64,000 nt of DNA from an uncultured Planctomycetota bacterium (GTDB lineage Bacteria; Planctomycetota; Planctomycetia; Gemmatales; Gemmataceae): positions 96,001-160,000 of the forward strand of contig CAWKHF010000004.1 of NCBI GenBank assembly GCA_963849325.1, given 5' to 3'. Under the pieces are notes generated by a model. It saw only the letters and a list, made by a program, of their open reading frames with translations, was not told where the DNA came from and did not search any database. This document shows positions 2,590 to 46,690 of the stretch, one piece after another; within the stretch, counting starts at the first letter, position 1; each line of letters starts with the position of its first letter. The position numbers were made by a program, and so were the translations under genes.

Positions 2590-2689
2590 GTTCGCCTCCG
2601 AGGAAGGAGTACAACGTCGAAAAGCTACGGCGTTGTACGCCGCTTCCCTGGCCGTCTCCCCAGGCGAGGGGAGTCGCTGGCGGCGTCAA

Positions 2690-4156: not shown

Positions 4157-4157
4157 G

Positions 4158-4358
4158 CTACTCCTCCTCGAACTTGCCTTCTCTCCAGCACCGCCGGACA
4201 GCGCTCACGGGATCAAGCGACAGGTCCGGGACGAACAATGTCTTGATCTTGCCGTCCCTGGTGATGATGCGGACGCCGAGGCCGTTCTCCAGCTTGACGA
4301 CCTCGGCGTTGATGCCCACGTCCCATCCCTGGCCGTTTGGCCACGGCCTTGCCCACAT
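4158..4358 (-). CDS. Small hypothetical protein
   Basis: 66-aa ORF abutting the ATPase start. Confidence 0.55.
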   Translation of the reverse strand: MWARPWPNGQGWDVGINAEVVKLENGLGVRIITRDGKIKTLFVPDLSLDPVSAVRRCWREGKFEEE

Positions 4359-4779
4359 GCGATCCTCCCCGCCCTTGTCTGCTTCCGGCGCTTACGCTGT
4401 GGCCCGTCCAGCGCCTTGCATCCCTCCTTGAAGCCCTTATTCATCGGAATCCTCCAGACTGCGATGCCAGAAGCAGGTTTTCTTGCCAGGCCGGGGCGCT
4501 TGCTGCATTGCACCCAAACACCGCCCATGTATCGGGACTGACCCGAACCCGTATAGACCCGGACTCTTGCTCGGCACTTGCTGCTGTCGAAATGCTTCGT
4601 CAGCAGGGTTTGTGAAGCCATCGCCTTCCGAAGCTTGTACTCATGTTTTTTCCGTTCGTCAGCCATCATTCCGCCTGACGAAGAGTACCAGCCAGCAAGA
4701 CCAAGTTCCCAAGCCTTGGAAGTCACGGCTTTCTGTCAATGCCGGGGATGAACAGGCAGTGCTTGGGTAGCCCGCCGAG

Positions 4780-5259
4780 CTATATCTTCTCGTCCTCCTC
4801 GTCATCCTCCTCGTCGCTATCCAACATGGATTCGCCCACGAAGGTAAACGTGCTGGGGTCTTCCCCTTCGAGAAACAACTCGAAATCGTCGCAGCGGGGA
4901 GCAGCGTAGGGCCAGACCTCACGACGCCCGACCACTCGGTAAACCTCGCCGTCATACTTCACGAGATCGCCCAGGTGGAAGTCGGCGTTTTCCTGCCGGG
5001 TGTACAACGGCAAGAACGGCTTCAGCCCGAATTCGTCAATGATCTCGGCCACGGTCATGGGGCCGTCCTGCAATTCAAGCACCCGGTCCCACCATCCCAT
5101 GTTGGCGTAACATAGCGCCTGTTCGACATCCAAGCAGCTTGGTATGGCCAGCGGCCCCCGGTAATCTTCATGCAGGTGTTCCTCCAGGGCGCTGATGCAG
5201 GTCCACTCGCCCTCAAGGACGGCCTTGGCCAGCCACTTCGCACTTCGTCGCTTCACCAT
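4780..5259 (-). CDS. Hypothetical protein, acidic tail; N-half paralogous to 7536-7793
   Basis: ANMGWWD...MTVAEIIDEFGLKPFL vs ANLGRWD...MTVAQAIEEFQLSDFL. Confidence 0.7.
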   Translation of the reverse strand: MVKRRSAKWLAKAVLEGEWTCISALEEHLHEDYRGPLAIPSCLDVEQALCYANMGWWDRVLELQDGPMTVAEIIDEFGLKPFLPLYTRQENADFHLGDLVKYDGEVYRVVGRREVWPYAAPRCDDFELFLEGEDPSTFTFVGESMLDSDEEDDEEDEKI

Positions 5260-5295
5260 GATTGATCTCCCTGTGTTTGAGTTTGTGAAAGGGTT

Positions 5296-7421: not shown

Positions 7422-7459
7422 GAGAGCGTCCAGAAGTAGTGATTTTCTCCCTCACTGAT

Positions 7460-7485
7460 CTGCACGTCAGAGGGAGGGCGTTCAG
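7460..7485 (-). promoter_or_regulatory. Motif copy 3 (13-nt spacer)
   Basis: aatc-CTGAACG ccctccctctgac GTGCAG. Confidence 0.7.
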
Positions 7486-7535
7486 GATTGTGGCCAGGCA
7501 AGAACGTCCCGGCTGGTCAGGCCATGCCCGCTCGC

Positions 7536-7793
7536 CTAGCCGAGAAAGTCCGACAACTGGAATTCCTCAATGGCCTGGGCGACTGTCATTTCCCGGTCGT
7601 CGTCCACGGGCAAGAGGGTGTCCCAGCGGCCCAGGTTGGCGAAGCCGATGATAAGCTCCAGGGCCAGCATGACCTTTTCGTTGACTGGCCAGATGCCGAT
7701 AAACTTGAAGTGCCTGCGAACTGCCGTGTGAAGGGGTAGCACGCCTGCCTTCCACGCTTCGGCCAGTTCTTCGGACGTGAGCTTTCTCTTCAT
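7536..7793 (-). CDS. Small hypothetical protein (paralog of 4780-5259)
   Basis: Shared AN(L/M)GxWD...MTVAxxIxEF motif. Confidence 0.7.
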   Translation of the reverse strand: MKRKLTSEELAEAWKAGVLPLHTAVRRHFKFIGIWPVNEKVMLALELIIGFANLGRWDTLLPVDDDREMTVAQAIEEFQLSDFLG

Positions 7794-7796
7794 GGA

Positions 7797-8093
7797 TCAA
7801 TACTCGTCAGGGAGCAAGATTGTGGTCGCCGCTCGGTGGCCATTGTCGTCTGCGGCCTCGGTGATGACCCACAGCTTCACGCCCTTCAAGGTCCGGTAGG
7901 CGGACAGAATGCGGTCGCCGTGGATCAGCGCCTCGTCGTTCAACTGCTGGTCCTCCTCGTTGACCTCGCCGTAGTCGCCGCTGGCATGGCGAGCGATGAA
8001 GAACTCGGCGGTCTGGCCGCTCGCCTCCATCGCCTCCAGAGCGCCAGGGGTGGCCGCAAGCCGCCCCAAGGGGAACTTCGCCGCAAGGCGCAT
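7797..8093 (-). CDS. Conserved plasmid/phage-associated small protein
   Basis: FPLGRLAATPGALEA...RHASGDYG...RILSAY...LWVITEA...TTILLPDEY. Confidence 0.8.
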   Translation of the reverse strand: MRLAAKFPLGRLAATPGALEAMEASGQTAEFFIARHASGDYGEVNEEDQQLNDEALIHGDRILSAYRTLKGVKLWVITEAADDNGHRAATTILLPDEY

Positions 8094-8103
8094 CGCTCAG
8101 CCC

Positions 8104-10936
8104 TCAATCAAGGAAGGTCACAAGGTCGCCGTCATACACCACGCTGCGCCCGACAAGTTCCGCCGCACTGCACTCCTCGCCCTCAAGCAAGTGCTGGAAC
8201 GCCCGATGACACATCGGCACCGGGATCACCCGCCCATCCTCTGCGTCGAGAAAGACGAGGACGAGGCTGCCGTAATCCCGCAGGTCAGCGATAGTGCCGG
8301 TGATTGCCTGGATCATCTCCTTCACCGGCCTTCGGGGAATAGGTCATCGACGCCGTTCCATAGTCGGGCTTTCTCGGCCAATGCCTCCGGGTCACGGCAC
8401 TTCCAATAGCCGCCGCCGTCCTTCACTTCGACCTCGGCAAGCCCCGCCTGCTGGATGCCATCGAGCAGGGCAATCATCGCCAGGTGGCAGCGGAGGAAGT
8501 TCTCCAGACCACCATGTTCGGGACGGCTTGCGGGCTGCGTGCAGCAAGTGAACGACCACTGCCAGCCCTCCACCGCCGGGAGCTTGCAGAACCCGAAGGC
8601 AGCAGGCTCGCAACCGTTGCCGAGCCAGATCGGGAAGCAGACCAGCGGGTGGGGCCGCACGATCTCGACCACCGGCCCCACCCGCTGAAAAGACAGTCCC
8701 AGGGCCAGCCGCCGCATTTCCTCGACCACCTTGCGCACCGCCTCGGTGTCGGACAGCTTGGTGGCCAGAGCGTAGCGGATCGAAAGTCCCATCATCGCAG
8801 GCCAAGCTCCCTTTCCAGCTTGTCAAGTTCCCGTTCGAGCAGGACCGCCCGCTCCCGGCTTTTCCGGCCTGGCGGCGAGAACGAGTCAGGCCCTCGATTT
8901 CACCGCCCGTCCGCAACGAAGTTGAAGTAGAAGCGGGGCGTGTGCTGGAACTCCAGCGACCCCTTCACCCCGTCCGCCTTCCGCCGGACCACCACGAGCG
9001 GGGCCAGGAAGCCGATGACCTCGAAATCCTGGGCAAGCTGCTGGGTGTCCCACACCTGGCCATGCTGCGCTTCCAGGGCCTCCCGGCTGCCGGGTTCTGT
9101 GTTGATCTCGGCCAGCCGCTCACGGCGGGCCGCTTCGGTCGGGTCGCTCATCGCACTCCCCTTCAATTCAAGCCGAACGTCGGCCTTCCTTGCGGTTGTT
9201 GGCCTCGATCTTCCGGCGGGCATCCTCCGAGTTCGCCGCCCTGTTCCGCTGCGGGTCCAGACCCAGGACACGCCCGACGACCGCCTCGACCAGCTTGCTG
9301 ATCGTCCAGTATTCCGAGCGGGTCAACGGACGCTGCCGCAGCACGTCCATGCGCTGCCGGATGGCCTCGCACCAGGGGTCGTCGCCGGTCAGAAGACCGT
9401 GAAACTCAAGGGTCTGCCGCAGACCGGAAAAAGCCACGGCACGGGTGTAGCGCATCGGTCAGTTCCTCCAAATGGTTGTGTTGCTTTCTCGCCTTTACCT
9501 CTGGACTACCACGGTCAACATCAGGCCGAGGGCCTGAAAGCGCCTCCACGATTTTTTCCCGTGGTGCCCAGCCGCCTCGGTCGTCTCGGTTCTCGATGAA
9601 CTCGTCCAGGCAGTGGTCGCTGAACCAGCTATGAACCTCGGCCTCCCATGCTTCCGGCAAGTTCTTTTCCCGCCACATCTCGCTGCGGTAGTTGTCCAGC
9701 GTCTCCAGGTACTCCCTTTCGGAATAATCGCTCTCGTCCAGAATCGGGTAGTTTTCCAGGGCGTCCTTGATCCGGCAGAACTCCTCGAAAGCCGGGGTGA
9801 TCGTGCCATCGGCCTTGAAAACCCTGATCGAGAACCCGTCGATGTAGCCGACTGCCCAATGGCTGTGCCGCTCGAACACGAGATCGGGGTCGCCGCCCTC
9901 GCTGAACGGTCGGAGCCGGTCGTTGATCGCCTGCTCGTTGGACTGCTCCAAAAGTCCGGCGTCCCTGCTGCTCGTGTACCAGACGCACCAGCGGTCGGCG
10001 TCTTCGAGGTCGTAGCCCCGGTGCCAGGCGAAGCAGTCGAAGTCTCGCCAGTTCCCGGCCAGCGCCTTCCCAGCCGCCTCCACGTCAGTCCAGTCGATTA
10101 CCTGTGTGGTTGCCATCGCTCGCCTTTCCTCTTTCACCCTGCGTACTTGGCCTGGAGCCGGACCAGTTCCGCCCGCTCCGCAGTTTCCTGCTCGTTGGCG
10201 AGCCGTCGCTCGTACTCGCCCAGGACACCGTTCTGGTGCAGCCAACTCTGCAAGGCCCGCTCCACGTCCGAATAGGTGAAGCCGGGATCGCCCCAGCAGG
10301 GGTGGGCCAGCGTCATGCGCAGGAACCGGACCTTGCCCTCGGTGGCCGTGAAAAACTCACCGTAAAAGCCGTGCCGGTTGTAATGAGCGATGTGGCCGAA
10401 GGTCAGGGCCAGCCGCCGGTAGAACGTGTGCGGAAACTGCCGCTCGGCAAAGTCCGACTCCACGAACCGGATGAACCGCCGGGCGAACCGGGCCTTCTCC
10501 TCCGCATCTTCCCAGCGGGTCGGTGTGAACTGGTCTGCGGTGAAATCCTTGATGGTGCCGAACATGCAGCCCTCGGTAAGTCGTTGTTATTTCCCAACTG
10601 ACTTACCTGTACGCCAGGGCCGATGGCGTTCAGGAATTCGCCCGTTTTTCACGGCTGCGATGTTCCTGTCATTGGCCAGCCGGAACCCGGATCGTCACCC
10701 TACAGCCCGATGGCCTTGCGCCAGTCCGCAGGAACCTTCGCCCTCGCCACCCGCTTGCACTTCGCCTTGAGGAAGTCCCTGGAAATCCCGGTCGTGCAGA
10801 CCGACCCGACCAGCCCCGCAATCGCCGTGGCCCGGCCCTCGAAGTGGTCCTTGCCGAAATGGTCCAGGTAGTAGCGGTTCGTGCTGGCGTCGATGGCGAG
10901 AAAGTCACCGTTGCTTTCCTGAAAGAAGACAATCAT
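8104..10936 (-). CDS. Run of small hypothetical genes (8104-8325, 8322-8795, 8900-9151, 9168-9455, ~9495-10116 frameshifted, 10134-10565, 10700-10936)
   Basis: Co-oriented ORFs, some with overlapping stop/start codons. Confidence 0.65.
10607..10633 (-). promoter_or_regulatory. 27-bp motif copy 4
   Basis: aattc-CTGAACG ccatcggccctggc GTACAG. Confidence 0.7.
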
Positions 10937-16251: not shown

Positions 16252-17199
16252 TCACCCCGCCATGTCGAGCGCTACTTCCAGGGCGTGCCGGTTCGTGTTG
16301 GCGCTGTCGCCGAACCAGAGTGAGTTGAGTCGGTTGTCCTCGCTGCGCCCACGGCTGTAGGTCAGCCACTCGCTGACGCCGTTGTAGGCCGACCAGTAGG
16401 TGCCCCGGATGGAGGGCAGGTTGTTGCCCCGGCCCGCCTCGGCCAAGGCCATGACTTCCTCCATGATGTTTGCCATCCGGGTGCCGGTGTCCTGATCGTC
16501 CTCGACCTTGAACACCGTCTTGACGTAGCGGCGCAGGTCGGTCTGGTTGATGCTCCGGCGGGCCAGCAGCCGGTACTGCTCGGCGGTGGCCTCGAATTCG
16601 GTGTTCGCCAGGTCCATGATTTCCCGGACGTTGGCCAGATTCTCCAGCACGTCCTTCGTATGCTTCAGCCGGATCAGCTTGCTGGTGTCGGAGCCGTGGG
16701 CCATCGCCAGGGTGTTGGCGCAGACGACCCTGACCGGCGTGAAGCCGCAGCGCACGGCGAGCGAGCCGTCGTGCCCGTGGGAGAGCAGGAGGAACTTCTC
16801 GACCGTATCGCCCTCGGCAATCACCAGCGGGTCACGGTTCAGCTTGGCCAGAACCCAAATGCGACTGCCCTGGCGCAGTGCGCCCGCCGTGTGCAGTGCC
16901 GCTTCCCTGGCGTCGAGGAAGGGCTGGAACCAGCCGAAGGCGTCCTTGTTCTGGAGCGGGGCGAAGCGGGGGCCGACGACTCCCAGCACTCTGGCGTCTG
17001 ACGTGCGGCGGACGGCCCGGTGATCGACCTGGGCCTGGGTGTCGGCGGTGACGAGCGACACCAGTTCGACCTCCCAATCGAGGCCCGACTTCCTGCTGGC
17101 CGCTGACCAGTCGTAGAGGTCGGCTTCGTCCAAGGCGGTCCCAAGCCGGTGCCAGGGCAGTTCCCCGAAGTAGGCCATCGTTTCGACTTCGTGAGCCAT
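16252..17199 (-). CDS. DUF932 family phage/plasmid protein
   Basis: MAH...PWHRLG...LQNKDAF...TAGAL..G.RIWVLA...LSHGHDGS...FTPVRVVCANTL. Confidence 0.9.
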   Translation of the reverse strand: MAHEVETMAYFGELPWHRLGTALDEADLYDWSAASRKSGLDWEVELVSLVTADTQAQVDHRAVRRTSDARVLGVVGPRFAPLQNKDAFGWFQPFLDAREAALHTAGALRQGSRIWVLAKLNRDPLVIAEGDTVEKFLLLSHGHDGSLAVRCGFTPVRVVCANTLAMAHGSDTSKLIRLKHTKDVLENLANVREIMDLANTEFEATAEQYRLLARRSINQTDLRRYVKTVFKVEDDQDTGTRMANIMEEVMALAEAGRGNNLPSIRGTYWSAYNGVSEWLTYSRGRSEDNRLNSLWFGDSANTNRHALEVALDMAG

Positions 17200-31734: not shown

Positions 31735-31887
31735 GGAAGGGTGTATTACACCCCCTCCGGGAAAGCGGTGGCAAAGAACTTGGCAGAATCCGGCGCTCGT
31801 GGTTTACAGATCGCCAATTTTCGCAGTAAAGAGAGATACCCGAACCGACAGCAACTTGGGCAAGCAGTCAGGGAGATCACTGGAGTC

Positions 31888-33771
31888 ATGCGCAAGAGCA
31901 AGGTCAAGAAGCCTGGCAATACCAAGGCCCAGGAGCAGCGGCACAGCATTCCCCCCGCCCTGCGGATTTCTGGCAGGCCGTCCTTCGATTGGGTCATGGA
32001 GAGCGGAGCCGCTTACAACTTCCGGGAGTTAGGGAGGCTCCTTGCGGTGTCGAACCCTGGCCTCTACCGACGTGCCGACAGCTACGGACTCTACAAGACG
32101 GTGCCTGGCAAGAACACCCCCGTTACGGTCGCCACGGGCAGGGCGTTGCGTTCCCTGCTGGTGGACACGGTGGACATCACCGTTATCAAGAACGGCAAGT
32201 TCGCCAGCGACATGCCGCCGGTCGCCACCTTGGACACGATGCTCGCCACGGAATGCTTCCTTGGTGCGTTCCGTCCCGTCCAGCGCATCGTTACTTCGCC
32301 GGTCTACCTGCCGGACTTCAGCCTGACCCAGCCGGGCTACAACCCAGGCGGCGTCCTCTACCTGGGACCGGCTCCCGCCGTCTCCGAGAGCCTGGAGTTC
32401 ACCAGCCGGTTCCTCGACGTGATGGAGTGGGCCGGGAGCGCCGACCGGACCAACGCCGTCGCTGCGGCGCTCCTCGTGCATCTCCGTCTGCTCTGGCCGG
32501 GCGGCAAGCCGGTCGTCCTCATTACGGCAATCGTCTCCGGGGCCGGGAAGGGCACCGTCATGAAGTATGCGGCGGGGAACGTCCGGCGGGCCAGCATCCT
32601 CTACGAAAACCTCGACTGGCCCATTCAGAGGCAGTTGCAGCCGCAACTCAACGCCCATCCCGACGTTGGGGTGATTACGTCGGACAACGTGCGCACCGAT
32701 AGCTCGCACTCCAGGGAAATCCGCTCCGGCTTCTTGGAGGGCTTCATCACCGACCCGGAGATCATCATGAACGCTCCCGGCGGCGGTCCCGAAGTCCGCA
32801 CCCCGAACGCCTTCGTCTACTTCATCAACACGAATGAGGGCGTCTTCTCCAAGGACTTCTTGAACCGCTCGCTCCTCAGCCACCTGACACCGAAGGGCGA
32901 CGTGACGGAAACGCACCGCAACTGTCCGATTGGCGACCCGATGGAGTACCTGGACAAGAACCGGGAGCAGTTGGACGCCGAACTCCGGGGAATGATCGAA
33001 CGGTGGAAGAAGGCGGGGAAGCCGCTGCTCCCGGACGCTCCAGAGGGCCATCGCATGGTGGACTGCACCCGGACGCTGGGCGGCATCCTCCAGGTCAACG
33101 GCTTCAAGGACTTCCTGGGGAACTACCGCAGCGTCCGGGCAGCTTACGATCCCATCGGGCAGTCCCTCGGCATCATGGCAGCGGCGCAGCCGGGCCGGGA
33201 GATGACGGCCAGGGAATGGGCGGCGCAGGCGGTGACGCAGGGCCTTGACAACCTCTTCGGCCCAGGGAGTCGTGGCAGGGAGAAGGTGCTGTCGCAGGAG
33301 CGGGAGATGGGCTGGAAGCTCAAGGCATTCATCAACCACACCGTTGAGTTCGTCACCGAGGACGGCGGACGGCTGCGGTTCAAGTTGCATAAGGATAAGC
33401 GGCGCTGGGGCGGCCTCGACCCCCACTTCCGCTACTGGTTTGAGCCGGAGGACGAGGCGACGAAGGACGCCGTGAAGGAACTGATGCTGCCGAAGCCAGC
33501 CGCAACCGAAGCGTCCACGAACGGCTCCGGCCTTCGCTGCATCGTGTGTAACGGGCCGTCGCTCGCCGTGGTGGGCACCGGCAACAAGCAGGTCCACTAC
33601 TGCCTGAAGCATTACCAGGAAAAGCACGGCGACCTGGACCAGTATCAGCCGGAGCCGATCCCGACCCCCATTGAGGCCCCGATGCCCGCAACGCTTGACG
33701 CCCCGAAGCAGGACGGCTTGGACCAGCACCAGCCAGAGGAGATTCCGGCCCGGAAGGAGGCGTCACCTTGA
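31888..33771 (+). CDS. P-loop NTPase, probable replication helicase-type protein
   Basis: Walker A SGAGKGT, Walker B-like VITSDNV, YFINTN, DFLNRSL. Confidence 0.65.
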   Translation: MRKSKVKKPGNTKAQEQRHSIPPALRISGRPSFDWVMESGAAYNFRELGRLLAVSNPGLYRRADSYGLYKTVPGKNTPVTVATGRALRSLLVDTVDITVIKNGKFASDMPPVATLDTMLATECFLGAFRPVQRIVTSPVYLPDFSLTQPGYNPGGVLYLGPAPAVSESLEFTSRFLDVMEWAGSADRTNAVAAALLVHLRLLWPGGKPVVLITAIVSGAGKGTVMKYAAGNVRRASILYENLDWPIQRQLQPQLNAHPDVGVITSDNVRTDSSHSREIRSGFLEGFITDPEIIMNAPGGGPEVRTPNAFVYFINTNEGVFSKDFLNRSLLSHLTPKGDVTETHRNCPIGDPMEYLDKNREQLDAELRGMIERWKKAGKPLLPDAPEGHRMVDCTRTLGGILQVNGFKDFLGNYRSVRAAYDPIGQSLGIMAAAQPGREMTAREWAAQAVTQGLDNLFGPGSRGREKVLSQEREMGWKLKAFINHTVEFVTEDGGRLRFKLHKDKRRWGGLDPHFRYWFEPEDEATKDAVKELMLPKPAATEASTNGSGLRCIVCNGPSLAVVGTGNKQVHYCLKHYQEKHGDLDQYQPEPIPTPIEAPMPATLDAPKQDGLDQHQPEEIPARKEASP

Positions 33772-35023: not shown

Positions 35024-38000
35024 ATGCGTCTCAATATCGACCCCAAGGGTAAGTGGGAAGTCGCCATGACCCCGGATGAGGCGGTGCGGCTCGCTGAGCA
35101 AATCCGCCAGGTCGTTAGTGAGCGTTGCGAGAACGAAGACATTGAAGTGACGTTCACGCACGGGGCGTGGGTCGTCACCACGGTGTCAAAGGAGGAGGAA
35201 TGAGTCGTGGCTGACGTTATCAACTTCCGTACCGAAAAGCTCCTGCACCTTCTGCGCAAGGCTCTGGAGGAAGTGGAGCAGCGCCGTCTGGCGGGCAAGA
35301 TCACGCAGGAAGACATTGGCGACCTGCTGAAACTGAAGGCGCGAGCTTGATCGCCTGCTGCCGGAGAAGGAGGAATAAACCGTGAAGACCCACATGCGTC
35401 ACTTCGACGGCGTGCTGCGTGAGCAGGACGGCAACCAGGGTTGCCCGCAGTGCGGGGCCGCACCGCAGCACTGCCAGTACATCGAAATCCAGGCCGTCAC
35501 CTACGAGTACGACCCGAAGAAGGGCATCCACGTCCCAATCGAGTACGTCAGCCCGGCGGAACTGGATTACGACGTGGAGTACGACGACGACCACCCCGAA
35601 GTCCTGGGCAAGTGCAACCAGTGTGGCCACGAGTGGGCTGCGTTCCAAAGTGAGGAGTAAACATGAAGTGTCCCGTTTGCAAGAAGCCCACCCAGGAGCC
35701 GGGTGCTTGTCTCGCCTGCCTGCCGTTCAATATGTACTTCGGCGTTGACACGACTCCAGAAGATGAGGACCGTTGCCGCCGCCTGATGGTGGCCAACCGT
35801 AATAAGCTCGACACCATCCCATTCAGCCAAATGAAGATCGGGGTCGGCGGCGAACATCACCCGCAGGTTGATGGTGATGACCTCGTTCAATTCGTCCTTG
35901 ACGACGGCATCACCATGACGACCGCCCTGGACCTGTTCGCCCGCAAGTCCGTACTCTTCGGGCGTCAACCCACGGAAGCGAAGTGAGCCATGAGCATGGA
36001 ACACGAATTGATATGTCCCAAGTGCGGCGGGGTTGTCACCGTGAACGACGGCAACTGCAATAGTGAAGGATCGTGGATAACGCACGGTGCGGCGACTGCG
36101 AATCGGAGTTCGCTGTGGGCTGGGAACATACTCCATTCTTGTACGATACCGACGAAGACGACAAAAACTTATGAAGCACTTCAACCAGACCTGCGAACAT
36201 TGTCACTCAGGGCCGCAGGCGCTCGCCTGCATCTCCTGCGGTCGCTGGTGTTGCGAGCGCTGCCTGGAAGCCTGCGTCCGCTGCGGCGAGTTCGTCTGCC
36301 CCTGGTGCAAACGGATCGGACCAACGACCGAGTACGGCCCAGGGTATTGCGAGAACTGCTTGGAGGAGATCAAGTCATGAAGTTGAAATGCAAAGGCTGT
36401 GGCAACATGGACAAGTTCTGCGGCTTCCAGCAGGCCACCGGCAGTCACGATTGTGTCGTGGGCCTTAGCCGGGAGGAGGCGGTTCCTGGCTGCGGCAGCG
36501 ACGACGTGGCAGCGACGGCTGCGGCAGCGCCGCCCTGCTCGGAGAAGTTGCTCTGACTCCCCCGGCGTTGCGCCCAGCCATGCGTCGGAAGCTGAAGTAC
36601 GAAAGGCAGCGCCAGGAGGCTTTGGAGATCGTGGAGGCCATGAGTGCGCAGTACCACCTGGAGATGGCGGCGCAGCAGGCTGCTCCGGCCCAGGACACCG
36701 AAGGGGGAAAGGCATGACCTGCAAAAACCACGAATGGGTCGTCTTCTCGACGGCCCTCGATAAAGGTTGGCTGATGCTCCAGTGCGTCAAATGCGGCCTT
36801 CACGCCACGGTCGATGACCCCTCGAAGAAGGAATGGTCGAATGCGTACCATGCGCCGTCGAATCCGTATCGCTGGCTTGATGAAACACGGGTCGTGATCC
36901 ACGAGGAGCATCCCGCCGACCCGCGCTACGTCCAGAAGGAGCCGCCAAGCGCCAAGAAGTGCGAATGCTATGCCAAGCTGGGTGTACCTGAGCCGGGCGG
37001 TTACGAGCGGGTCTGGATCGAGGCGACCAGGCTGAAGCCGGACCTGACTCCTGAAGCCCGGAAGGAGTTGCTGCACCTGGCTGCGCTGGCGGATCGGGCC
37101 GCTGACCTTTGCAGCACCTTCTTTCCTCTGTTCGTTGAGGGCTACCAGCAGGACACCGGCGGCGAGCCGAGCCACGCCGTCCGCTGGTTCGCCAAGCAGA
37201 TCGACAAGCTGCGGGCGATGGGCGTCCATTGCTCCTCGTCCGTGATCGCCACGCTGCTGCGGGAGTTGGCGAAGGCGTAGCTTCTGGCACCTGGCGGGAA
37301 GACAAGGCTCCGGCCCGAAAGGAGGCAGGTTTGATGAGCGAGAAGGAAGGCAACCGCTCGGCTCTGGCCCTGGGCCTGTACTTGTACCGGGTGCTGGAGA
37401 ACGACTCAGACGCCGACCCGCTGGACCACGGGGCTGTGCGGGCGGAAAGCCCGGAAGCCGCCAAGCGCCTCGTGGCCGAGCGGCTGCGGGGAGACTTGGA
37501 GTGGATATTCGACGTGTCTGGCGAGGACCAGCTAAAGGTCCGCCTCCACCCCTTGGAGGACGTGCAGACTAGCCAGGTCTTGAACTCGGAGAACTTTGAG
37601 GACTTCGAGGTTGAGCGGCCTAACCTTGGCCTTGCGCCTGAACGGTCGTCCTGACCAGAACAAGGAGGTAGTCATGAAGCAGTACACCTTCGTGGAGAAG
37701 ATCGTCAGCAAGGCGCAGTGGCTTGTCAAGGCCGAGACGCTGGCCGATGCCGAGCGGCGGTTCCAGGCCCTCCGTGACGAAGGGGAACCGCCGGTCGAGG
37801 AGGAGGTCGAGGACTCCGAGATTATCACCGTGTTGGAAGACGGCATTGCCGTTCCGCCGCCGGGCAAGAAGCGCTACCACATCGAGGTCAAGGTCGAAGG
37901 CGGCACGAAGCACTACGAGGTCTTTGCCGCCGACGAGGACGAGGCCGTGATCGCCGGGCAGGATCGTTTCCTTGGAGAGAACCCTGGCCAGGACGTTCTG

Positions 38001-38975
38001 ACGATCTCTGTGGAGGAAGCGTCTACCGCCGAGGCTGAGGCCGTCGAGAAGGCGTGGCAATTCCACCTGGATGTGGTCGGCTACGGCGACGACCCGGAAG
38101 AAGCTTGGGGGAATCTGCTCCTGCACTCACTGAAGGAGCCGCCACCTTGCGAGTGGCTGACGGAAATGAACGTGCGCCTGGAAGACGAGAGCCACGAAGG
38201 AGGAACCGATCAGTGAAACAAGAAGAAGCCCGCCTGAAGCGTGCGCTGAAGAAGCTGGAGAAGGCCGGGGTCGAAGCCTTCCACCCTGAGCGGTTCCCGC
38301 AGGATGATCGCCTTCGCTGCCGGTCGTGTGGCCAAATCTTCTGGCCTGGGAGCCGGAAGCGGATTTGGTATCGGTGCCCGAATGGGTGCTGTCCCAAGAC
38401 CGAGGCCGAGGAAGCACTAGAGTTGCTGGACAAGCTCTGCCCGCCGGAAGAGGCCGGGCCGTGATGGGCCAGCGGGTCCGGGGCGTTCTTAACTTGCAAA
38501 CAGGGAAGGGGCAGGAGCGAGGAGCGATTCGGGCCAAGTTTCCGGCCCCTGCCCAGGGCAAGACCGGGCCAAATTATTCTCGCACTCTTGCGTTTCCTGC
38601 CGCAAGTCCTTTCCAGGCAAGTAGAAGAAACTTGTTCGGCCAGTTTTACAACCGACTCGATGCCGCTCTATAGTGCTTGATGAAACAAGAATGTGCGATC
38701 TGCTTGGCTGGGTTGGTCCTGGCATCAGAAAACATGGCCAAGAAGAAGCTGGCCTGACTTTTCCAGAGGAGCCACAACAAATGAAACGCAACAGCAAGAG
38801 ACTGCCTCAGCGGCTCGTGGTAGATGACGTGCTTTATCAGGACGGCTATATCTGGATCGTCGTGGACGGCCAGGAGATTATCCTCGACGTTCTCAACGGC
38901 TGCGATACCGTTGAGGACTTGCTGGAGGCGTGTCGGGAGTGGTTGGCGTGGGACGAGGCCCAGGCGGGCAAGTGA
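35024..38975 (+). CDS. Run of ~12 small hypothetical genes, many with CxxC pairs (e.g. 35382-35660, 35663-35986, 36171-36380, 36714-37280, 37333-37654, 37674-38216, 38213-38464, 38781-38975)
   Basis: Closely coupled ORFs with GGAGG RBSs; multiple CxxC motifs. Confidence 0.65.
37624..37668 (+). repeat. 45-bp repeat (also 39194-39238 and 40604-40648)
   Basis: CCTTGGCCTTGCGCCyGmACGGwCGyCC..ACCAG...AArGAGG, three copies. Confidence 0.85.
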
Positions 38976-39053: not shown

Positions 39054-39238
39054 CGCAAGTCGGTCGCCTCGATGCGGCGTGGCGTGGCGACCGGCTTCTC
39101 GATCTCCACCGAAGGGGAGGGGTTGGCCGTCGGCTCCGTGGTCGATGGCCAATACCGGCTCCGGGCGGGCGAACCATTGAGGACGGGGCCATGCCTTGGC
39201 CTTGCGCCCGCACGGACGCCCCCACCAGGGTAAAGAGG
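39054..39238 (+). pseudogene. Degenerate copy of the ubiquitin-like coding repeat joined to the 45-bp repeat
   Basis: Reads RKSVASMRRGVATGFSISTEGEGLAVGSVVDGQYRLRAGE; N-terminal part and GRKG missing. Confidence 0.8.
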
Positions 39239-40503: not shown

Positions 40504-40529
40504 TTTACCGGCGCAAAACGCCATCCCTG

Positions 40530-40648
40530 GCTTTCATCGGCGGCATGGTGGTCGAGCCGAGTACCGGCTCCGGGTGGGCGAACCTTTGAAGGCGGGGCCA
40601 TGACCTTGGCCTTGCGCCCGAACGGTCGCCCTCACCAGGGTAAGGAGG
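40530..40648 (+). pseudogene. Second degenerate Ubl 3' fragment plus 45-bp repeat
   Basis: AFIGGMVVE-(frameshift)-EYRLRVGEPLKAGP-stop. Confidence 0.75.
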
Positions 40649-41393: not shown

Positions 41394-42359
41394 ATGACCA
41401 TGATCGCACCTGGACCCTGCCGCATCACCCACGGCCCTCACGATTCGTATTTCAAGAACATCGAGGGCAAGTCGGTCGCCTCGATCCGGCGCTCCCTGGC
41501 GAGTGTCTTCAGCATCCCCAACGACGCCGAGGCGTTCATCGGCGGCTCGGTGGTCGATGGCCAGTCCCGGCTCCGGGCGGGCGACTGGCTGACGTTCTTG
41601 AAGCTGCGGGGGCGGAAGGGATCGGTGCGGGAGCCGATGCTTCCGCCGCCAGAGCATTGGGATGAAGACAAGACGCCCATGCGCCGCCTTTTGCACCTGG
41701 AGGCCAGCACCTACCGGGTCGATACGCTCTTCGACCTTCCACCGGCCAGGGCGGACTGCTTCACCGAGAACTACGTCGTCAGTCCAGGCGGCCACTTCGC
41801 CTATCGCAATCGCATCCTGCTCGGTGGAATGCCTCTTCGCCTTTTCGGAAAGGATCAGGCGATGGTCGTCTGGAATGGCGACGTGGTGATCCCCATGCTC
41901 TTGGACATGACGGCGGACTCCCGGTGCGGCGGGAAGTTCCCGGCGACGGCGACCAGGGAGGAGCGGGCGAAGTGGGCAGCGGTCTGGATGTCGATGACCC
42001 CCGCTGAAATGCTGACCCAGCGCAGCGGCGTCCAGGCAGCCGAGGGCACCGTCGTCCTCGGCGGGCTGGGCCTGGGCTGGCTGCTGCGGAAGGTCTGCGA
42101 GAAGCCGTCCGTCGAGCGTGTCATCGTCGTGGAGAAGAGCCGGGAGTTGCTGGACTGGTACGGGACCGACCTGTGCAAGCGGTACGGCAAGGTTTCCGAC
42201 GTGATCTGCGACGACGTTTACAACCAGATCGGCAAGCACGGGGCCGGGGTCAAGTACCTGCTGGACATCTGGCTGTGGTTCGGCCAGGCACGGCGGGACA
42301 GCCGGTTCAAGGCGTTGAAGCGCAAGCTGAAGAAGCGGCTTTGGGGATGGGGGTTCTGA
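41394..42359 (+). CDS. Ubl-like domain fused to class I SAM-binding (spermidine-synthase-like) domain
   Basis: aa 1-76 end LRGRKG; later VWMSMTPAE, VVLGGLGLG, VIVVEKS. Confidence 0.8.
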   Translation: MTMIAPGPCRITHGPHDSYFKNIEGKSVASIRRSLASVFSIPNDAEAFIGGSVVDGQSRLRAGDWLTFLKLRGRKGSVREPMLPPPEHWDEDKTPMRRLLHLEASTYRVDTLFDLPPARADCFTENYVVSPGGHFAYRNRILLGGMPLRLFGKDQAMVVWNGDVVIPMLLDMTADSRCGGKFPATATREERAKWAAVWMSMTPAEMLTQRSGVQAAEGTVVLGGLGLGWLLRKVCEKPSVERVIVVEKSRELLDWYGTDLCKRYGKVSDVICDDVYNQIGKHGAGVKYLLDIWLWFGQARRDSRFKALKRKLKKRLWGWGF

Positions 42360-42364
42360 ACATC

Positions 42365-43216
42365 ATGCTCTTGACTGGCGAACGCTGGGCACCGGGCCGG
42401 GAGATGCACGACCCCGGACACTGCCGCATCACCCACGGCCCTTGCGATTCTTATTTGCCGAACCTCGCTGGCAAGTCGGTGGCATCGGTGCGGCGTGGCC
42501 TGGCGACCGTCTTCTCGATCTCCACCGAAGCTGAGGCTTTCGTCGGCGGTTCGGTGGTCGGTCCCGATTACCGGCTCCGGGCGGGTGACTCGGTGCTGTT
42601 TCTGCGGCGTGGGTGGGGGCGGAAAGGGGCGTTCACCAAGTTTGGGACCATCCTGGCTGACCCGGCCTGGCCTTACCGCTCGCCCCGTGCTGTCGTCGGT
42701 AACGGTGGTCGGGGAAACCCGGATGGCCACGCCAAGGACATCACCCAGGTCGATGCCAGTGCGCACTACCCGGTGATGACCTTGGAGGAGATCAAGGCGT
42801 TGCCAGTCGAGGAGGTCGCCGCCGACGCCGCCCACCTTTACCTCTGGACCACGAACGCCTTCATGGTCGAGGCCCACGACGTTGCCCGTGCCTGGGGCTT
42901 CCAGCCGAAGACGATCCTGACATGGGTAAAGCTCAAGCTGGACCGCCCGGAAGTCTCGATGAAGACGGGCCACTGGTATCGCTCGGCCACGGAACACATC
43001 GTTTTCGGCGTCCGGGGTAGCCAGCGGCTCTTGGGATCGGCGGTGCCCACGGCCTACCTGCTGCCCAGGCTCCCGCACAGCGAGAAGCCTGAGTTCTTCT
43101 ACAAGCTGGTCGAGGCGCAAAGCCCTGGCCCGTACCTGGAGCTTTTCGCCCGGCGCCGCTGGCCTGGCTGGGACGCCTGGGGGAACGAGATCGAATCCAC
43201 GATCCGGTTGACGTGA
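42365..43216 (+). CDS. Ubl-like domain fused to MT-A70 family adenine methyltransferase (start 42365 or 42404)
   Basis: CRITHGP...GRKG then ILADPAW, HYPVM, HLYLWTTN, TEH, HSEKP, YLELFAR, WGNE. Confidence 0.9.
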   Translation: MLLTGERWAPGREMHDPGHCRITHGPCDSYLPNLAGKSVASVRRGLATVFSISTEAEAFVGGSVVGPDYRLRAGDSVLFLRRGWGRKGAFTKFGTILADPAWPYRSPRAVVGNGGRGNPDGHAKDITQVDASAHYPVMTLEEIKALPVEEVAADAAHLYLWTTNAFMVEAHDVARAWGFQPKTILTWVKLKLDRPEVSMKTGHWYRSATEHIVFGVRGSQRLLGSAVPTAYLLPRLPHSEKPEFFYKLVEAQSPGPYLELFARRRWPGWDAWGNEIESTIRLT

Positions 43217-43226
43217 GAAAGGACGA

Positions 43227-43892
43227 ATGAGGATGCTTCCCGTGCCGTTGACTTCGCCGCCCAAGAACGCAGTTGCAGGCAGTGGCGGACTTCAGCCCCC
43301 ACCGGCCTGCCGCATCACCCACGGCCCCAACGATTCTTATTTCGAGAACGTCGAGGGCAGGTTCGTCGCCTCGATCCGGCGCTGCCTGGCGACCGTCTTC
43401 TCCATCCCCGACGACGCCGAGCCTTTCATCGGCGGCTCGGCGGTCGCTGCTGAGTACAGGCTCCGGGCGGGCGACTGGTTGGAGTTTTTCAAGCGGCGTG
43501 GGCGGAAGGGTGCGCTGGAGCCGGAGGAACTGGTCCTCATCGAGAAAGAAGGCTTGACCTTGACCGAGGCCGCAGCCCTGCTTCCCGGCAGGAAGCCCGG
43601 CAAGCGGCTTTACGTTAATACGATCCGCCGCTGGTGCATGAAGGGGCTTCGCAACGGCGTCCGGCTGCGCTCCGTCTTGATCGGCGGGCACCGGCTCACC
43701 ACCCGGCGCTGGTTGCAGGAGTTCATCCAGGCGATGGACGAGGCGCATGAGCCGGGGGAATCCAGCCCACCCGTGATCCGCACTCCCCGCCAGCGCAAGA
43801 GCGCCGCTGAACGGGCCGTGGAGGAGTGGAAGGCGTTCTGGAAAAAAGGCGACCGCCCACCGAGCCAAGGCGACTCGCAGCCTCGTACATGA
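43227..43892 (+). CDS. Ubl-like domain fused to DUF1580-like excisionase-type HTH
   Basis: CRITHGP...GRKG then LTLTEAAALLP...TIRRWCMKG..GVRLRSVLIGG..LTT...LQEFI. Confidence 0.85.
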   Translation: MRMLPVPLTSPPKNAVAGSGGLQPPPACRITHGPNDSYFENVEGRFVASIRRCLATVFSIPDDAEPFIGGSAVAAEYRLRAGDWLEFFKRRGRKGALEPEELVLIEKEGLTLTEAAALLPGRKPGKRLYVNTIRRWCMKGLRNGVRLRSVLIGGHRLTTRRWLQEFIQAMDEAHEPGESSPPVIRTPRQRKSAAERAVEEWKAFWKKGDRPPSQGDSQPRT

Positions 43893-43992: not shown

Positions 43993-45360
43993 TTACCCCA
44001 TCTCCAGAGCGATCTTCTCCACCAACTCCATGTCCTTCTCGGCGTAGATTTCGGCGGTGGACAGCTTCGTGTGACCCATGTAGGCCCGTGCCGCTTCCAC
44101 GCCGTACTTCTTGCACACGTCCGTCCCGCAGACGTGCTTCAACTGGTGCGGATGCCAGTGGGGAACCCCGGCCTTCTTACAGGCACGTTCGATGGCACGG
44201 GCGTAGCTGTGGCGGTCGTAGTGGTCCCGTGGCTCTCGCTTCGGCTTGGCTTTTTTCTTCTTGGCCTGGCGTGCGACGTGCGATGGCCACAGCGGGGTCT
44301 TCCGCCGCTTCCGTCGCTCATCGTACTTCCTCTGGCGTGCCTCTCGTGGCTGGAACAGGAACTCGTCCTCGTTTTCCCGGAACCATTCCTTTAGGATCGC
44401 CTGTGCCTTCGGGCCGATGGGCAGCAGCTTCACCGACGCCGAGCCGTCCGCCTCCTCGACATGGGCTGTCTTGTGCAGGTTGGCCGGACCTTCATGGGGA
44501 ATCTCGTTGGGGTCGATCCGATACCACCAGACGGGTCCGCTGCGGTCGATGTTCCGGCCCCGCATCAGGCAGATTTCCGTCTCCCGTGCGCCGATCAACG
44601 GCTGGAGCCGCACCATCGCCGCCACCTGGGGGCAGAGGAAGGGCAGCACGGCCTCGACGTGCTGCTGCGACACCGGCCTGACCTTCGGCCTCTCGTAAGT
44701 CCCTGGGTGGCCCCGCCGCAGCCCCCGCACCGTCATGAGCGCCTGGTACACCGAGGGCGGGACCAGTTCCTCGGAGACGGCCCACTTGAACGTCCGCTTG
44801 ATGAGGTCGATCCTGCGATTGATCTCCTTCCGGGAGATCGCTTTCTTCTTTTTCAGAAGCTCGACGGGCTTCCACTCGCCCTTCCGCTCGGCCTCCCACT
44901 GGTCGGCGTGCCCCGCCCGCTGGCGGATGCGGCTCTCCGGCAACCACCTTTCCCACGTCACCGAGTCGTCGGCAAGGCGGATGAGGTAGCGGTGGTCGTC
45001 GATCATCTTCTGGCGGACGGCCTTGAGCTTCAGCGGGCCGAACTCGGACGCCGGGGTGAGGCCGTAAAGGTCGATGAGGGGAGCCTGGGCGTACTGGTAG
45101 TTGTCCTTTTCGCCGGAAGGCGACCCATCGACCAGGCGGTAGTAGACCTCGGCGTGCTTGCAGAAGCGCACGCAGACCTCGGCTACCGACAGGTCCGGGC
45201 ACCGGCCACCGGCTGCCGTGGACGGGGCGAGCATCCCGGCTGCCAGCCACTCGTTGATGACACGGGTGTACTCCCGCTTGCTTTCTTCGGAGTCGAAGGG
45301 GCCGAGCAGGAAATCCCGGTACTTGCCGCCGCCGAGCGGCAGCGATACGACGGCCTGACC
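43993..45360 (-). pseudogene. Tyrosine integrase, 5' end replaced by IS
   Basis: SGQAVV...LGP, GARETEI, HQLKH, MGH, TAEIY; sequence upstream of 45365 is IS. Confidence 0.85.
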
Positions 45361-45365
45361 AGACT

Positions 45366-46690
45366 CAGTAGTTTCCGGTTCGGGCTGAGGGAGGAGGGGT
45401 GAGGGAGACAATCGCAAGGCTCCTCCTGAGAATGACTTGTACCACCAAGGACATTCCAGGAGGGAGCCATGCGACAACGGCAGTATACACTCACCCCCGC
45501 CCACGTCCACGCCCACGTCAGCGCCCGGATGCAACAATATCTCCGCCTGGCTGACCACGGCCCCCGCTGCCGAGCCGATACCCTGTGGGCCGTCCTCTGC
45601 TACGCCGCCAGCCGCATCATCTCTCTGGCCGCCGCCTGCGCCGCCCTCCGCGACGCGCCCTCCGACACCGCCGCCCACGACGCCCTGCTCGCCACCCTCC
45701 CTGACTACGCCGAACTGCAACGCCGCCTCAACCGCGCCCTGCAAGGCGACCTGCCCCACGCCTTACGCCGACGCCGCCAGCCCTTGGCCATCGACTTGGT
45801 GCTCATCCCCTACCACGGCAGACCCCTGCACCACGCCGACGAGGTCTACCGCAGCCAAGCCAAGAGCGGCACCAGCCACTTCCACGCCTACGCCACCGCC
45901 TACGTCATCCAGAAGGGCCGACGCTTCACCGTTGCCCTCACCCCGGTGGCCCGCCACGACGCCATGCCGGAGGTGCTCAAGCGGCGGCTGCGTGAGGCGG
46001 CGCGGGCCGGCATCCGCCCGCGTTATCTGCTGTTGGACCGCGGCTTTTGCAGCGTGGACGTCATCCGCTACCTGCAGAATGCCCGCTACGCCTGGTTGAT
46101 GCCGTTGGTGCTGCGCGGGCGCAAGGCCGACCACCCCAAGGGACCGTCGGGCAGCCGGGTTTTCGCCGGCCGCAAGCGTAGCGGCTGGGCCGAGTACACG
46201 ATGACCAACGCCGCCAAACGCCGGGCGCGGTTCCGGGTGTGTATCAAGTGTCGCAACCGTCGCGGCGAGCGGGGGCGGCATGGCCGTGAGGCGTTGGTGT
46301 ATGCCTTCGGCGGGCCGTTGCGTCCGTCGTCGTATACGTGGGTGAAGGAGACGTATCGGAGTCGGTTCGCCATCGAGACGAGTTACCGTCAGATGCACCA
46401 GGCGCGGATTCGGACCTGCACGCGCGATCCGCTGCTGCGTTTGTTGTACGTGGGGGTGGCGTTGCTCTTGCGCAACGTCTGGGTGTGGTTGCATGGGCAG
46501 GTGTTGGCGCGTCGTCAGCGAGGCGGTCGGCGGATCGACCTGGGGCGTTTGAGCTTTCGCAAGATGCTGGTGTGGTTGCAACACTGGGCCGAAGCCCATT
46601 TGGGAATCCACGATGAAATCGCCACGGAACATCGGATGTATGAATGAGTTGGGGAATGGTATCATAATTCACACTCACCGGAAACTACTG
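45366..46690 (+). mobile_element. ISH3-family insertion sequence (1325 bp)
   Basis: TIR CAGTAGTTTCCGGT / ACCGGAAACTACTG; AGACT at 45361-45365 and 46691-46695. Confidence 0.88.
45469..46647 (+). CDS. ISH3-family DDE transposase
   Basis: LAIDLVLIPYHG, KSGTSHFHAYAT, LLLDRGF, YRSRFAIETSYR. Confidence 0.9.
   Translation: MRQRQYTLTPAHVHAHVSARMQQYLRLADHGPRCRADTLWAVLCYAASRIISLAAACAALRDAPSDTAAHDALLATLPDYAELQRRLNRALQGDLPHALRRRRQPLAIDLVLIPYHGRPLHHADEVYRSQAKSGTSHFHAYATAYVIQKGRRFTVALTPVARHDAMPEVLKRRLREAARAGIRPRYLLLDRGFCSVDVIRYLQNARYAWLMPLVLRGRKADHPKGPSGSRVFAGRKRSGWAEYTMTNAAKRRARFRVCIKCRNRRGERGRHGREALVYAFGGPLRPSSYTWVKETYRSRFAIETSYRQMHQARIRTCTRDPLLRLLYVGVALLLRNVWVWLHGQVLARRQRGGRRIDLGRLSFRKMLVWLQHWAEAHLGIHDEIATEHRMYE

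Follow-up and report, generated by a model that had tools for sequence, protein, structure and literature searches.

Why do three consecutive genes for unrelated proteins begin with the same small domain? The question is raised by positions 41,394 to 43,892 of a stretch of 64,000 nucleotides from an uncultured planctomycete (Gemmataceae; GenBank assembly GCA_963849325.1, contig CAWKHF010000004.1, positions 96,001 to 160,000 of the forward strand), which is called the window below and numbered from its first letter. A sequence-only reading of this DNA had proposed that the shared domain is a ubiquitin-like (Ubl) module and that its fusions form a ubiquitin-fusion tagging system on a mobile element. 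Our favoured answer, to which we give a probability of about 0.4 as a whole, is that the domains are interchangeable N-terminal Ubl tags whose tail is read and cut by a peptidase acting in trans. The fold, the family, its architectures, the genomic linkage of its free forms and the exchange of modules are, taken alone, observations in which we have high confidence.

Three consecutive genes share an N-terminal domain

A tblastn search of the window with the three peptides placed the domain exactly at the coordinates claimed for it, in three copies (c1, c2 and c3) of 68 to 69 amino acids (aa), each N-terminal in one of three consecutive plus-strand open reading frames (ORFs). The copies are 64 to 75% identical (c1 and c3 75%, c1 and c2 67%, c2 and c3 64%) and match each other at E values of 1e-25 to 3e-33, unrelated matches in the window starting at E ~0.008. 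The genes and their tags are as follows.

41394..42359, plus strand: ORF1, 321 aa; 8-aa leader, Ubl tag and Rossmann-type methyltransferase-like cargo
41418..41621, plus strand: Ubl copy c1, 68 aa, ending LRGRKG at ORF1 residue 76
42347..43216, plus strand: ORF2, 289 aa; 25-aa leader, Ubl tag and MT-A70 DNA methylase
42422..42628, plus strand: Ubl copy c2, 69 aa, ending GWGRKG
43227..43892, plus strand: ORF3, 221 aa; 27-aa leader, Ubl tag and DUF1580 helix-turn-helix (HTH) domain
43308..43511, plus strand: Ubl copy c3, 68 aa, ending RRGRKG

The homology ends at the last Gly, as had been noticed; in c1 this is residue 76 of ORF1 (8 leader residues plus 68), a likeness to eukaryotic ubiquitin. 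The cargos had been read as a domain binding S-adenosylmethionine (SAM), an MT-A70 methyltransferase and a DUF1580-like HTH, and the last two are upheld by Pfam: ORF2 matches MT-A70 (PF05063, E 1.5e-26, 93.8 bits against a curated cut-off of 23.9), together with phrog_359 (E 4.5e-55) and the PADLOC model MTase_II (E 5.6e-52), and ORF3 matches DUF1580 (PF07618, E 1.2e-11, 44.4 bits against a cut-off of 24.4). The SAM-binding assignment of ORF1 stands in part, as no Pfam family matched this protein and PHROG gave a weak match to phrog_15480, 'methyltransferase' (E 4.9e-6). No PADLOC model matched ORF1 or ORF3.

All three tags are in frame with the downstream cargo domains, and all three ORFs have a start codon upstream of the tag. 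GAGGAG precedes the start of ORF1 and an AAAGGA Shine-Dalgarno sequence that of ORF3; the best start of ORF2 is the ATG at 42347, which makes this gene overlap the end of ORF1 by 13 nt and agrees with the N-termini of the relatives P0002 and P0037. Because ORF2 has no in-frame ATG, GTG or TTG over the 48 codons 3' of GRKG, and its MT-A70 core starts just 6 residues past the Gly, the proteins cannot start downstream of the tag, a possibility that the sequence-only reading had raised against itself. GC content at third codon positions (GC3) is similar in tags (0.91, 0.75 and 0.87) and cargo parts (0.83 to 0.87). The domain occurs at no second locus of the source genome (8.16 Mb searched).

The tag is predicted to adopt a beta-grasp fold

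A single-sequence AlphaFold2 (AF2) model of ORF1 reached a predicted local distance difference test (pLDDT) score of 37.6, and the fold was judged on a model built from a 70-sequence alignment, with a pLDDT of 88.8 (~96 in the core). This model has the topology b-b-a-b-b-b, followed from about residue 71 by a low-confidence tail (pLDDT ~63). Nearly all Foldseek rows were Ub, NEDD8, SUMO, FAT10, ISG15, MoaD, TtuB or other beta-grasp proteins, at template modelling (TM) scores of 0.55 to 0.64, and VIA-align over 48,161 chains placed Fubi (8bs3_B) and MoaD (1fm0_D) first, at Z 7.9 over 67 residues and 2.2-2.3 Å. As both lists concur and the sequence pattern is ThiS-like, we take the fold to be beta-grasp: on this modelling the tag is a module of the ThiS/MoaD/ubiquitin type, the fold scores being modest and the lists consistent. 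The Ubl claim thus found agreement among AF2, Foldseek and VIA.

Searches by sequence gave little. Over the tag of the window proteins there was no Pfam match at E≤0.1, and a search of the PDB with the Ubl profile gave a best E value of 0.073; nothing below E 0.07 was found there for three unknown ORFs or the ORF1 cargo. Tandem relatives of the tag reach ThiS (PF02597) in Pfam on the summed score (E 6e-11, 3e-10 and 3e-6), no single stretch passing, and TGS likewise on summed score only.

The domain belongs to a large family with a conserved tail

A profile of c1 to c3, scored against 1.84 billion cluster representatives, matched 517 of them at E≤1e-3 (87 at ≤1e-10 and 17 at ≤1e-30), these being clusters at 50% identity. 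The protein sequence of the domain is preserved across hundreds of clusters, at 30-45% identity. Among the best 150 of the 517 matches, from which the architecture and tail statistics are drawn, the domain occurs as single-domain proteins, many of them extended N-terminally by ~38 aa, as two to seven head-to-tail units and as N-terminal fusions. Across the family the fusion partners are HTH_17, DUF1580, MT-A70, N6_N4 and D12 methylases, GNAT and RNase_T.

These matches hold 172 domain instances, 37 of which are truncated or diverged at the tail. In the other 135, numbering back from the last residue, K(-1) is present in 135 and G(-3) in 134. The terminal Gly is found in 36/36 C-terminal units and 15/15 tandem-internal units; 21 of the C-terminal units stop exactly at it, in line with the end of the homology in the window, and 15 carry 1 to 8 extra residues (e.g. 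...GTKGC and ...GAKGC on two-domain proteins). Fused forms keep both G(-3) and K(-1) in 84/84 cases and a small last residue (G, S or A) in 82/84, the full count being G 67, S 10, A 5, L 1 and C 1.

In a quick maximum-likelihood tree of 150 domain rows and 69 columns, in which 88 of 147 inner branches are unresolved, c1 to c3 fall into a clade of 23 fused, 7 truncated and no free rows (Shimodaira-Hasegawa-like approximate likelihood ratio test, SH-aLRT, 96), and the tandem units form a separate clade. The domain lacks a Pfam model, and neither the window proteins nor the free forms gave a match over it; no PADLOC model matches the family, and PHROGs gave no match for the free Ubls P0127, P0100 and P0047. 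Public annotation names family members 'hypothetical' or after their cargo, and precomputed Pfam shows the cargo domains only.

Free relatives lie beside E1, E2 and JAB genes

Sixteen of 401 same-phylum genomes, the source genome included, contain the domain. For linkage, up to 20 kb around 15 matches was taken, and greedy ORF sets within 6 kb were scanned with Pfam; a locus search with a narrower alignment gave two genome loci and one viral locus. ThiF, Prok-JAB or Prok-E2_D lies within ~6 kb at 10 of the 12 loci with a free or C-terminal Ubl (ThiF at 8, Prok-JAB at 7, Prok-E2_D at 3; none at L032 and L036), several loci being cut by contig ends. By this context, operons of E1 (ThiF), E2 (Prok-E2_D) and JAB have the free and tandem relatives as their modifier proteins. 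Recurrent neighbours are CDC48-like AAA ATPases, DUF6744, retron-type reverse transcriptases (RT; PADLOC RT_XIII, E 8.8e-84), PD-(D/E)XK nucleases and SNF2 helicases.

Three kinds of free-form locus deserve mention in their own right. In other planctomycetes, L025:4865-9980 and L033:2051-6428 hold an operon with a retron-type RT, Prok-E2_D, Prok-JAB, ThiF and a free Ubl, joined in L025 by a Pol III beta-like gene and with PD-(D/E)XK or SNF2 genes near the operons; it looks like an undescribed defence-like system of RT and Ubl conjugation. At L026:3662-10135, L024:2989-10403 and L030:3697-10089, a free Ubl lies with a CDC48-like AAA ATPase (AAA plus AAA_lid_3) and DUF6744, and with ThiF and JAB (L026), ThiF (L024) or Prok-E2_D (L030), which suggests a module of Ubl and unfoldase; the L026 ATPase is IetA-like by PADLOC. 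Finally, a 239-kb IMG/VR contig (L047:533-8369) encodes a free Ubl with 69% identity to the P0047 group; near it lie matches to Prok-E2_D and Prok-JAB, both weak and below the curated cut-offs, and a 912-aa protein with Major Vault Protein shoulder and repeat domains.

The window itself has no ThiF, Prok-JAB or Prok-E2_D match in Pfam, which confirms the absence of E1, E2 and JAB genes noted from the sequence. Elsewhere in the source genome, ThiF or JAB matches occur on C2, C3, C5, C9 and C4 (326 kb), two of the ThiF genes being housekeeping-like; no Prok-E2_D match and no free Ubl of the family was found, in a genome 84.7% complete, so that absence is not proven. On the minus strand of C9 (316-322 kb; L045:4293-9999), a 397-aa protein, a ThiF E1, an E2 (PADLOC E2, E 1.3e-10) and a JAB lie together, adjoining a GH3-family gene. 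This set was put aside as a partner in trans because it is of the CBASS type and lacks a Ubl of the tag family. The JAB on C3, an isolated small MPN protein encoded between argG and a TPR gene, was also dropped, no link to the tags having been found.

Tags are exchanged at the junction with the cargo

All orthologs found of the three cargos are Ubl-fused, those of the ORF1 cargo being P0007, P0171, P0173 and P0166. Tag and cargo do not share one history. In P0157 and P0153, the cargo is identical to that of ORF3 at 124 of 126 positions, whereas the tags agree at only 47/68 and 51/68; 11 further pairs show 69-80% identity in the tag and 78-91% in the cargo. P0151, with an ORF3-type cargo, has a tag identical to that of ORF1 at 63 of 68 positions, and leader peptides and Ubl types are swapped among cargo families. 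The abrupt step in identity between tag and cargo requires recombination at the GRKG junction. Tags thus evolve as cassettes that are swapped by recombination at this junction, and they readily decay.

How the tag could act

On the favoured reading, one sub-lineage of the module acts as a general N-terminal tag on ORF1 to ORF3. The tag is translated in one piece with its cargo, and its conserved tail would be recognised by a Ubl-specific peptidase that the host or another element provides in trans. This peptidase would cut past the last Gly, as JAB does with BubAB, releasing mature cargo and free Ubl. In the window proteins the Gly is internal and would become exposed only by such a cut. Recognition of the tail and its cleavage are the two steps that we infer. 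Since the tag is swapped between unrelated cargos, cargo-specific contacts are unlikely; and its one strictly conserved non-structural feature, G-x-K-(G/S/A), points to an enzyme or receptor reading the tail. Removal by a peptidase in trans is favoured because the free members are handled, by context, by E1, E2 and JAB, and because BubAB provides a precedent for a cut at the Gly. By this analogy, cleavage past the Gly in the window proteins is plausible.

Several results weigh against this reading. The fold scores are modest: the best Foldseek E value was 2.8e-3, none reaching ≤1e-3, and a VIA Z below 8 may, according to the tool, reflect merely a common arrangement of elements. The profile behind the tail counts itself contains the motif. 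None of the six N-terminally fused loci (window, L027, L034, L037, L046 and L001) has ThiF, JAB or E2_D nearby, no Prok-JAB was found in the 41.5-kb provirus record, and no free form with an E1/E2/JAB set was found in the same-class genomes with fused forms (G000, G315 and G285). The terminal Gly is absent in 17 of 84 fused forms, among them the ORF1 orthologs P0007 and P0008 (KA) and the ORF2 ortholog P0005 (KS); this loss speaks against the Gly having to be conjugatable, and such an end may be ill-suited to a JAB. The ratio of nonsynonymous to synonymous substitution rates (dN/dS, omega) between c1, c2 and c3 is 0.58-0.70, not significantly below 1 (Fisher p 0.13-0.36), and their differences are spread evenly over the codon positions. 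Omega is 0.62 between c3 and L046 and 0.21 between the MT-A70 cargo and that of L001, where the cargo value alone was used, the L001 tag being frameshifted. Lastly, L001 and P0095 have a frameshifted tag with an intact cargo.

Selection at the protein level, the lack of which would have told against the sequence-only reading, is therefore not discernible among the three paralogs; it is for the family. The linkage evidence is likewise divided, the free relatives lying with E1, E2 or JAB genes and the fused forms not. Of the proposed ubiquitin-fusion tagging system, the Ubl fold, the fusion and the mobile host hold, and the strict fusion reading is weakened by the bare surroundings of the fused loci, the loss of Gly and the weak selection.

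These observations could also be accommodated by a Ubl domain that stays in place, as an integral module for docking, oligomerisation or stability in the manner of Rad23- and parkin-type proteins. We consider this explanation, the main rival, possible but doubtful. Such a domain might bring the methylases and the Xis-like protein together on one partner, or determine their half-life by way of an AAA+ unfoldase. It would fit the absence of a peptidase, E1 or E2 near all six fused loci, the relaxation of the Gly to S, A, L or C in fused forms against 0/51 free or tandem units, and the separate clade of the fused lineage. CDC48-like AAA ATPases occur in the free-form operons L024, L026, L029, L030, L031 and L038, and bacterial Ubls are reported to oligomerise (bioRxiv 10.1101/2024.11.21.623966). 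However, conservation of G(-3) and K(-1) in every fused form despite a predicted flexible tail is hard to understand without an enzyme or receptor that reads it, the free exchange of the tag between unrelated cargos makes cargo-specific contacts unlikely, and no partner was identified. A trans-acting peptidase therefore remains our preference, although searches of the genes of the mobile element against Pfam, PHROG and PDB sequences revealed no candidate for it.

Relation to known ubiquitin-like proteins

The closest precedent is BubAB of Type I Bub operons, a pre-protein of Ubl and E2 that is cut directly past a conserved Gly by the JAB domain of BubCD (PMC11601596). BubAB resembles the window proteins in having an N-terminal bacterial Ubl translated with a downstream protein and a conserved Gly at the junction, where the cut has been demonstrated; it differs in that its cargo is the pathway's own E2 and a JAB-E1 is encoded in the same operon (PMC11601596). 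In the window, the cargos are methylases and an HTH protein of a mobile element, and no E1, E2 or JAB gene lies nearby. The Ubl family is distinct as well, neither a PADLOC Bil model nor a solved chain matching by sequence.

Ubiquitin itself is made in eukaryotes from fusion genes, as ubiquitin-ribosomal protein fusions, Fubi-S30 and polyubiquitin. The family described here shares with these the N-terminal Ubl on unrelated proteins, the head-to-tail poly-Ubl genes and the few residues past the last Gly. Its tail, however, is G-x-K-G and not LRGG, the terminal Gly is not strictly kept in its fused forms, the relationship is one of fold only, and processing is putative.

Among the phage and bacterial architectures described by Iyer, Burroughs and Aravind 2006 are tail assembly protein I (TAPI) of lambda and T1, with an N-terminal Ubl, Ubl-Mut7-C fusions and polyUbl operons (PMC1779556). 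There, too, the N-terminal Ubl is ThiS/MoaD-like, two to three tandem Ubls lie in operons with E1, E2-like and JAB genes, and processing by JAB is predicted; unlike the window proteins, TAPI has a Gly-rich linker, an adjacent JAB (TAPK) and a function in tail assembly (same source). None of the architectures in the passages compared joins a Ubl to DNA methylases, an Xis-like HTH, GNAT or RNase_T. Bil and Bub operons, studied by the Corbett laboratory, encode Ubls with several beta-grasp domains (bioRxiv 10.1101/2024.11.21.623966), as our family does, and the free relatives of the window domain resemble BilA and BubA in lying in Bil-like sets of Ubl, E2, JAB and E1. The differences are that PADLOC BilA-D miss the Ubls of our family and matched their neighbours once, weakly (BilD, E 1.6e-4, L035), that the E2 beside the free relatives is of the Prok-E2_D type, and that the window copies are fused and outside any such operon.

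The proteins thus join a known class, that of bacterial Ubls and Ubl fusions, and the tag family itself is unannotated. The sequence-only reading knew of no description of the arrangement, and our literature search agreed: among titles and the openings of abstracts, no Ubl-tagged methylase or Xis-like protein was described, supplementary tables, which possibly list related architectures, lying outside the search; the term DUF1580 was not found. Bacterial ubiquitin-like systems (Cap2/3 of CBASS, Bil and Bub) are a fast-moving field, in which the known Ubls belong to the immune operon itself. What is added here is a large unannotated Ubl family of 517 clusters, for which sequence comparison gives no relative in Pfam, PADLOC or the PDB. 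Its gene architectures cover the whole eukaryote-like range (free, with a short C-terminal extension, head-to-tail poly-Ubl and N-terminal fusion), and it has a sub-lineage that is a portable tag on mobile-element proteins, among them three classes of DNA methylase, Xis-like HTH proteins, GNAT and an exonuclease, away from E1, E2 and JAB, with direct evidence of tag exchange at the Gly junction. Enzymes of mobile elements in bacteria may therefore carry tags in the style of ubiquitin fusions. Should host enzymes cleave or read these tags, the establishment of mobile elements would be linked to ubiquitin-like signalling in bacteria; if the tags stay uncleaved, the proteins would still be the first substantial group of UBL-domain proteins in bacteria that lies outside conjugation operons.

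A bolder version, which we regard as unlikely, would have the early enzymes and the excision regulator of the element made as ubiquitin-fusion-style pro-proteins that are read by the host Ubl machinery through G-x-K-G. A JAB-type peptidase of the host would then free the methylases and Xis as a host-sensing switch, or the tags would jam the E1/E2/JAB immune operons that use the same Ubl family. The elements concerned are carried by planctomycetes and, judging from the fusion partners, probably by other bacteria too. Were this version true, the fast swapping of tag alleles by recombination would be the footprint of an arms race, and the system would be the first case of Ubl-based counter-defence or Ubl-dependent activation in a bacterial mobile element.

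Decayed copies and repeats upstream of the tagged genes

Upstream of ORF1, remnants of the module and a non-coding repeat were found.

39057..39179, plus strand: remnant c4, a 5'-truncated intergenic Ubl module (middle and 3' part) with no start codon before mid-domain
~40529..40602, plus strand: remnant c5, a short frameshifted piece of a Ubl module, in DNA families D4 and D6
39194..39238, 37624-37668 and 40604-40648, plus strand: three copies of a non-coding 45-nt tail (family D3, 78-100% identity)

Remnant c4 is recognised by tblastn at E 4e-11, with 61% identity across 41 aa, and belongs to DNA family D2. The 45-nt tail (CCTTGGCCTTGCGCC...ACCAGGGTAAGGAGG) is taken as non-coding because its reading frame differs between copies; it terminates in an AAGGAGG-like Shine-Dalgarno sequence just upstream of genes, and its minimum free energy fold contains a GGGGCCA/TGGCCTT hairpin, a fold computed with no shuffle control. 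In c4 and c5 it takes the place of the GRKG end, and its third copy precedes the gene at 37674. For these reasons the region looks like a row of at least five cassettes of tag and cargo, two of which have lost the tag. The 45-nt tail might act as a leader or an operator, or be a scar left by recombination.

Other broken tags occur in P0023, P0035 and P0048. In L001 (9826-10800), the MT-A70 ortholog is frameshifted inside the Ubl tag and its methylase part is intact, which is either a real step of decay or a long-read assembly error; several of the tag frameshifts, which come from metagenome or long-read assemblies, may be assembly errors.

It might then be asked whether the DNA rather than the protein matters, the 5' cassette being a recombination substrate or a cis-regulatory leader and the protein domain of little present use. 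The omega values between copies, the even spread of differences, stretches of ~20 nt identical between copies, the breakpoints at the tag-cargo junction and the persistence of intergenic c4 and c5, joined to the conserved 45-nt tail with its Shine-Dalgarno sequence, all fit this idea. We nevertheless consider it extremely unlikely: the protein is conserved across hundreds of clusters at identities where no DNA similarity can remain, co-variation gives a confident fold, the tag is in frame with its cargo across many lineages, GC3 fits the coding frame, and no Rfam family was found across 30-47 kb of the window.

Alternatively, the tags might be decaying relics of an ancestral Ubl system, neutral passengers in the course of being lost. 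The two remnants, the weak omega and the frameshifted tags of L001, P0095, P0023, P0035 and P0048 could be so understood. Against this stand 84 intact fused instances from many clusters with an invariant G-x-K, the tag on every ortholog found of the three cargos, and the possible assembly origin of several frameshifts, and we think a relic very unlikely. Both ideas fit the weak omega and the remnants; neither fits the deep conservation of the protein.

Two smaller observations concern the same region. A 20-nt repeat (CCAAGAAGAAGCTGGCCTGA-like, 75-100% identity) occurs at 34840, 38218, 38738 and 39255, at or near the 3' ends of small genes, its successive copies being spaced by 3378, 520 and 517 nt. 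The small protein encoded at 38054-38464 has a CxxC...CxxC zinc ribbon, which weakly matches the C terminus of the Mut7-C RNase model (E 0.0012); the families known to carry an N-terminal Ubl include the Mut7-C proteins.

The tagged genes belong to a mobile element

The tagged genes lie in the part of a small integrative element that serves integration and DNA modification. The block of the element reads, in order, an RHH-like gene, a 676-aa protein, an untagged N6/N4 methylase, small unknown genes, ORF1 to ORF3, a convergent tyrosine integrase and an insertion sequence (IS), and its recognisable members outside ORF1 to ORF3 are the following.

31741..33771, plus strand: primase-helicase-like protein, 676 aa, a lead from Atlas scores
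33768..34421, plus strand: untagged N6/N4 DNA methylase (PF01555 E 1.4e-22; phrog_67 E 4.6e-36)
43993..45759, minus strand: tyrosine integrase (PF00589 E 4.5e-10; phrog_1 E 2.9e-22)
45469..46647, plus strand: IS transposase DDE_Tnp_1 (PF01609 E 5.1e-9), adjoining the integrase

The 676-aa protein scores 0.96 in Atlas to mostly viral hypothetical clusters and 0.90-0.91 to DUF5906, VapE and PriCT clusters, and is 80% identical in L001 and 45% in L027. The 180-aa gene at 37674 has a best Atlas score of 0.82, which is uninformative. ORF3 stands in the position of an Xis gene, convergent with the integrase, and the same layout is shown by L046, a provirus according to IMG/VR, in which a Ubl-HTH_17 gene is convergent with an integrase. 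Locus L001, from a metagenome-assembled genome, is syntenic (RHH 88%, 676-aa protein 80% and MT-A70 cargo ~85-86% identical) and has two consecutive tagged genes, MT-A70 and then HTH_17. The earlier assignment to a mobile element is thus backed by an integrase, an Xis-like HTH, a primase-helicase-like gene, methylases and an IS.

The integrase ORF as listed is probably too long, its true start lying near 45.3-45.4 kb, and the transposase gene overlaps the upstream, probably non-coding part of that ORF. No capsid genes were found, and a search for att repeats between 26-32 kb and 43.9-47 kb gave one 13-mer, taken as chance. The IS may have inserted at the attachment site of the element or close to it, which could explain the missing repeat.

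A further explanation is counter-defence, in which the tags would mimic the modifier of host Ubl-conjugation immune systems (the E1/E2/JAB operons of the family), either jamming their enzymes as decoys or exploiting the host JAB as a switch that turns on the methylases and Xis in a suitable host only. Free relatives lie beside defence-like genes (RT_XIII, PD-(D/E)XK, SNF2 and AAA), the tags sit on early, anti-restriction-type genes of a mobile element, and their alleles turn over fast and recombine, as expected in an arms race. Moreover, Bil systems conjugate a Ubl to phage proteins (bioRxiv 10.1101/2024.11.21.623966). However, the source genome lacks a detectable free Ubl of the family and Prok-E2_D, the sole E1-JAB pair in it (C9) is CBASS-like and without such a Ubl, and a decoy has no evident need for fusion to enzymes. 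We judge this explanation to be quite improbable.

Farther to the left, the window contains at 16252-17199 a DUF932 gene (E 1.3e-49), of a kind typically found in conjugative or phage-like elements, and at 2230-10245 a run of small minus-strand ORFs of unknown function. Together they suggest that the left part of the window holds another mobile region.

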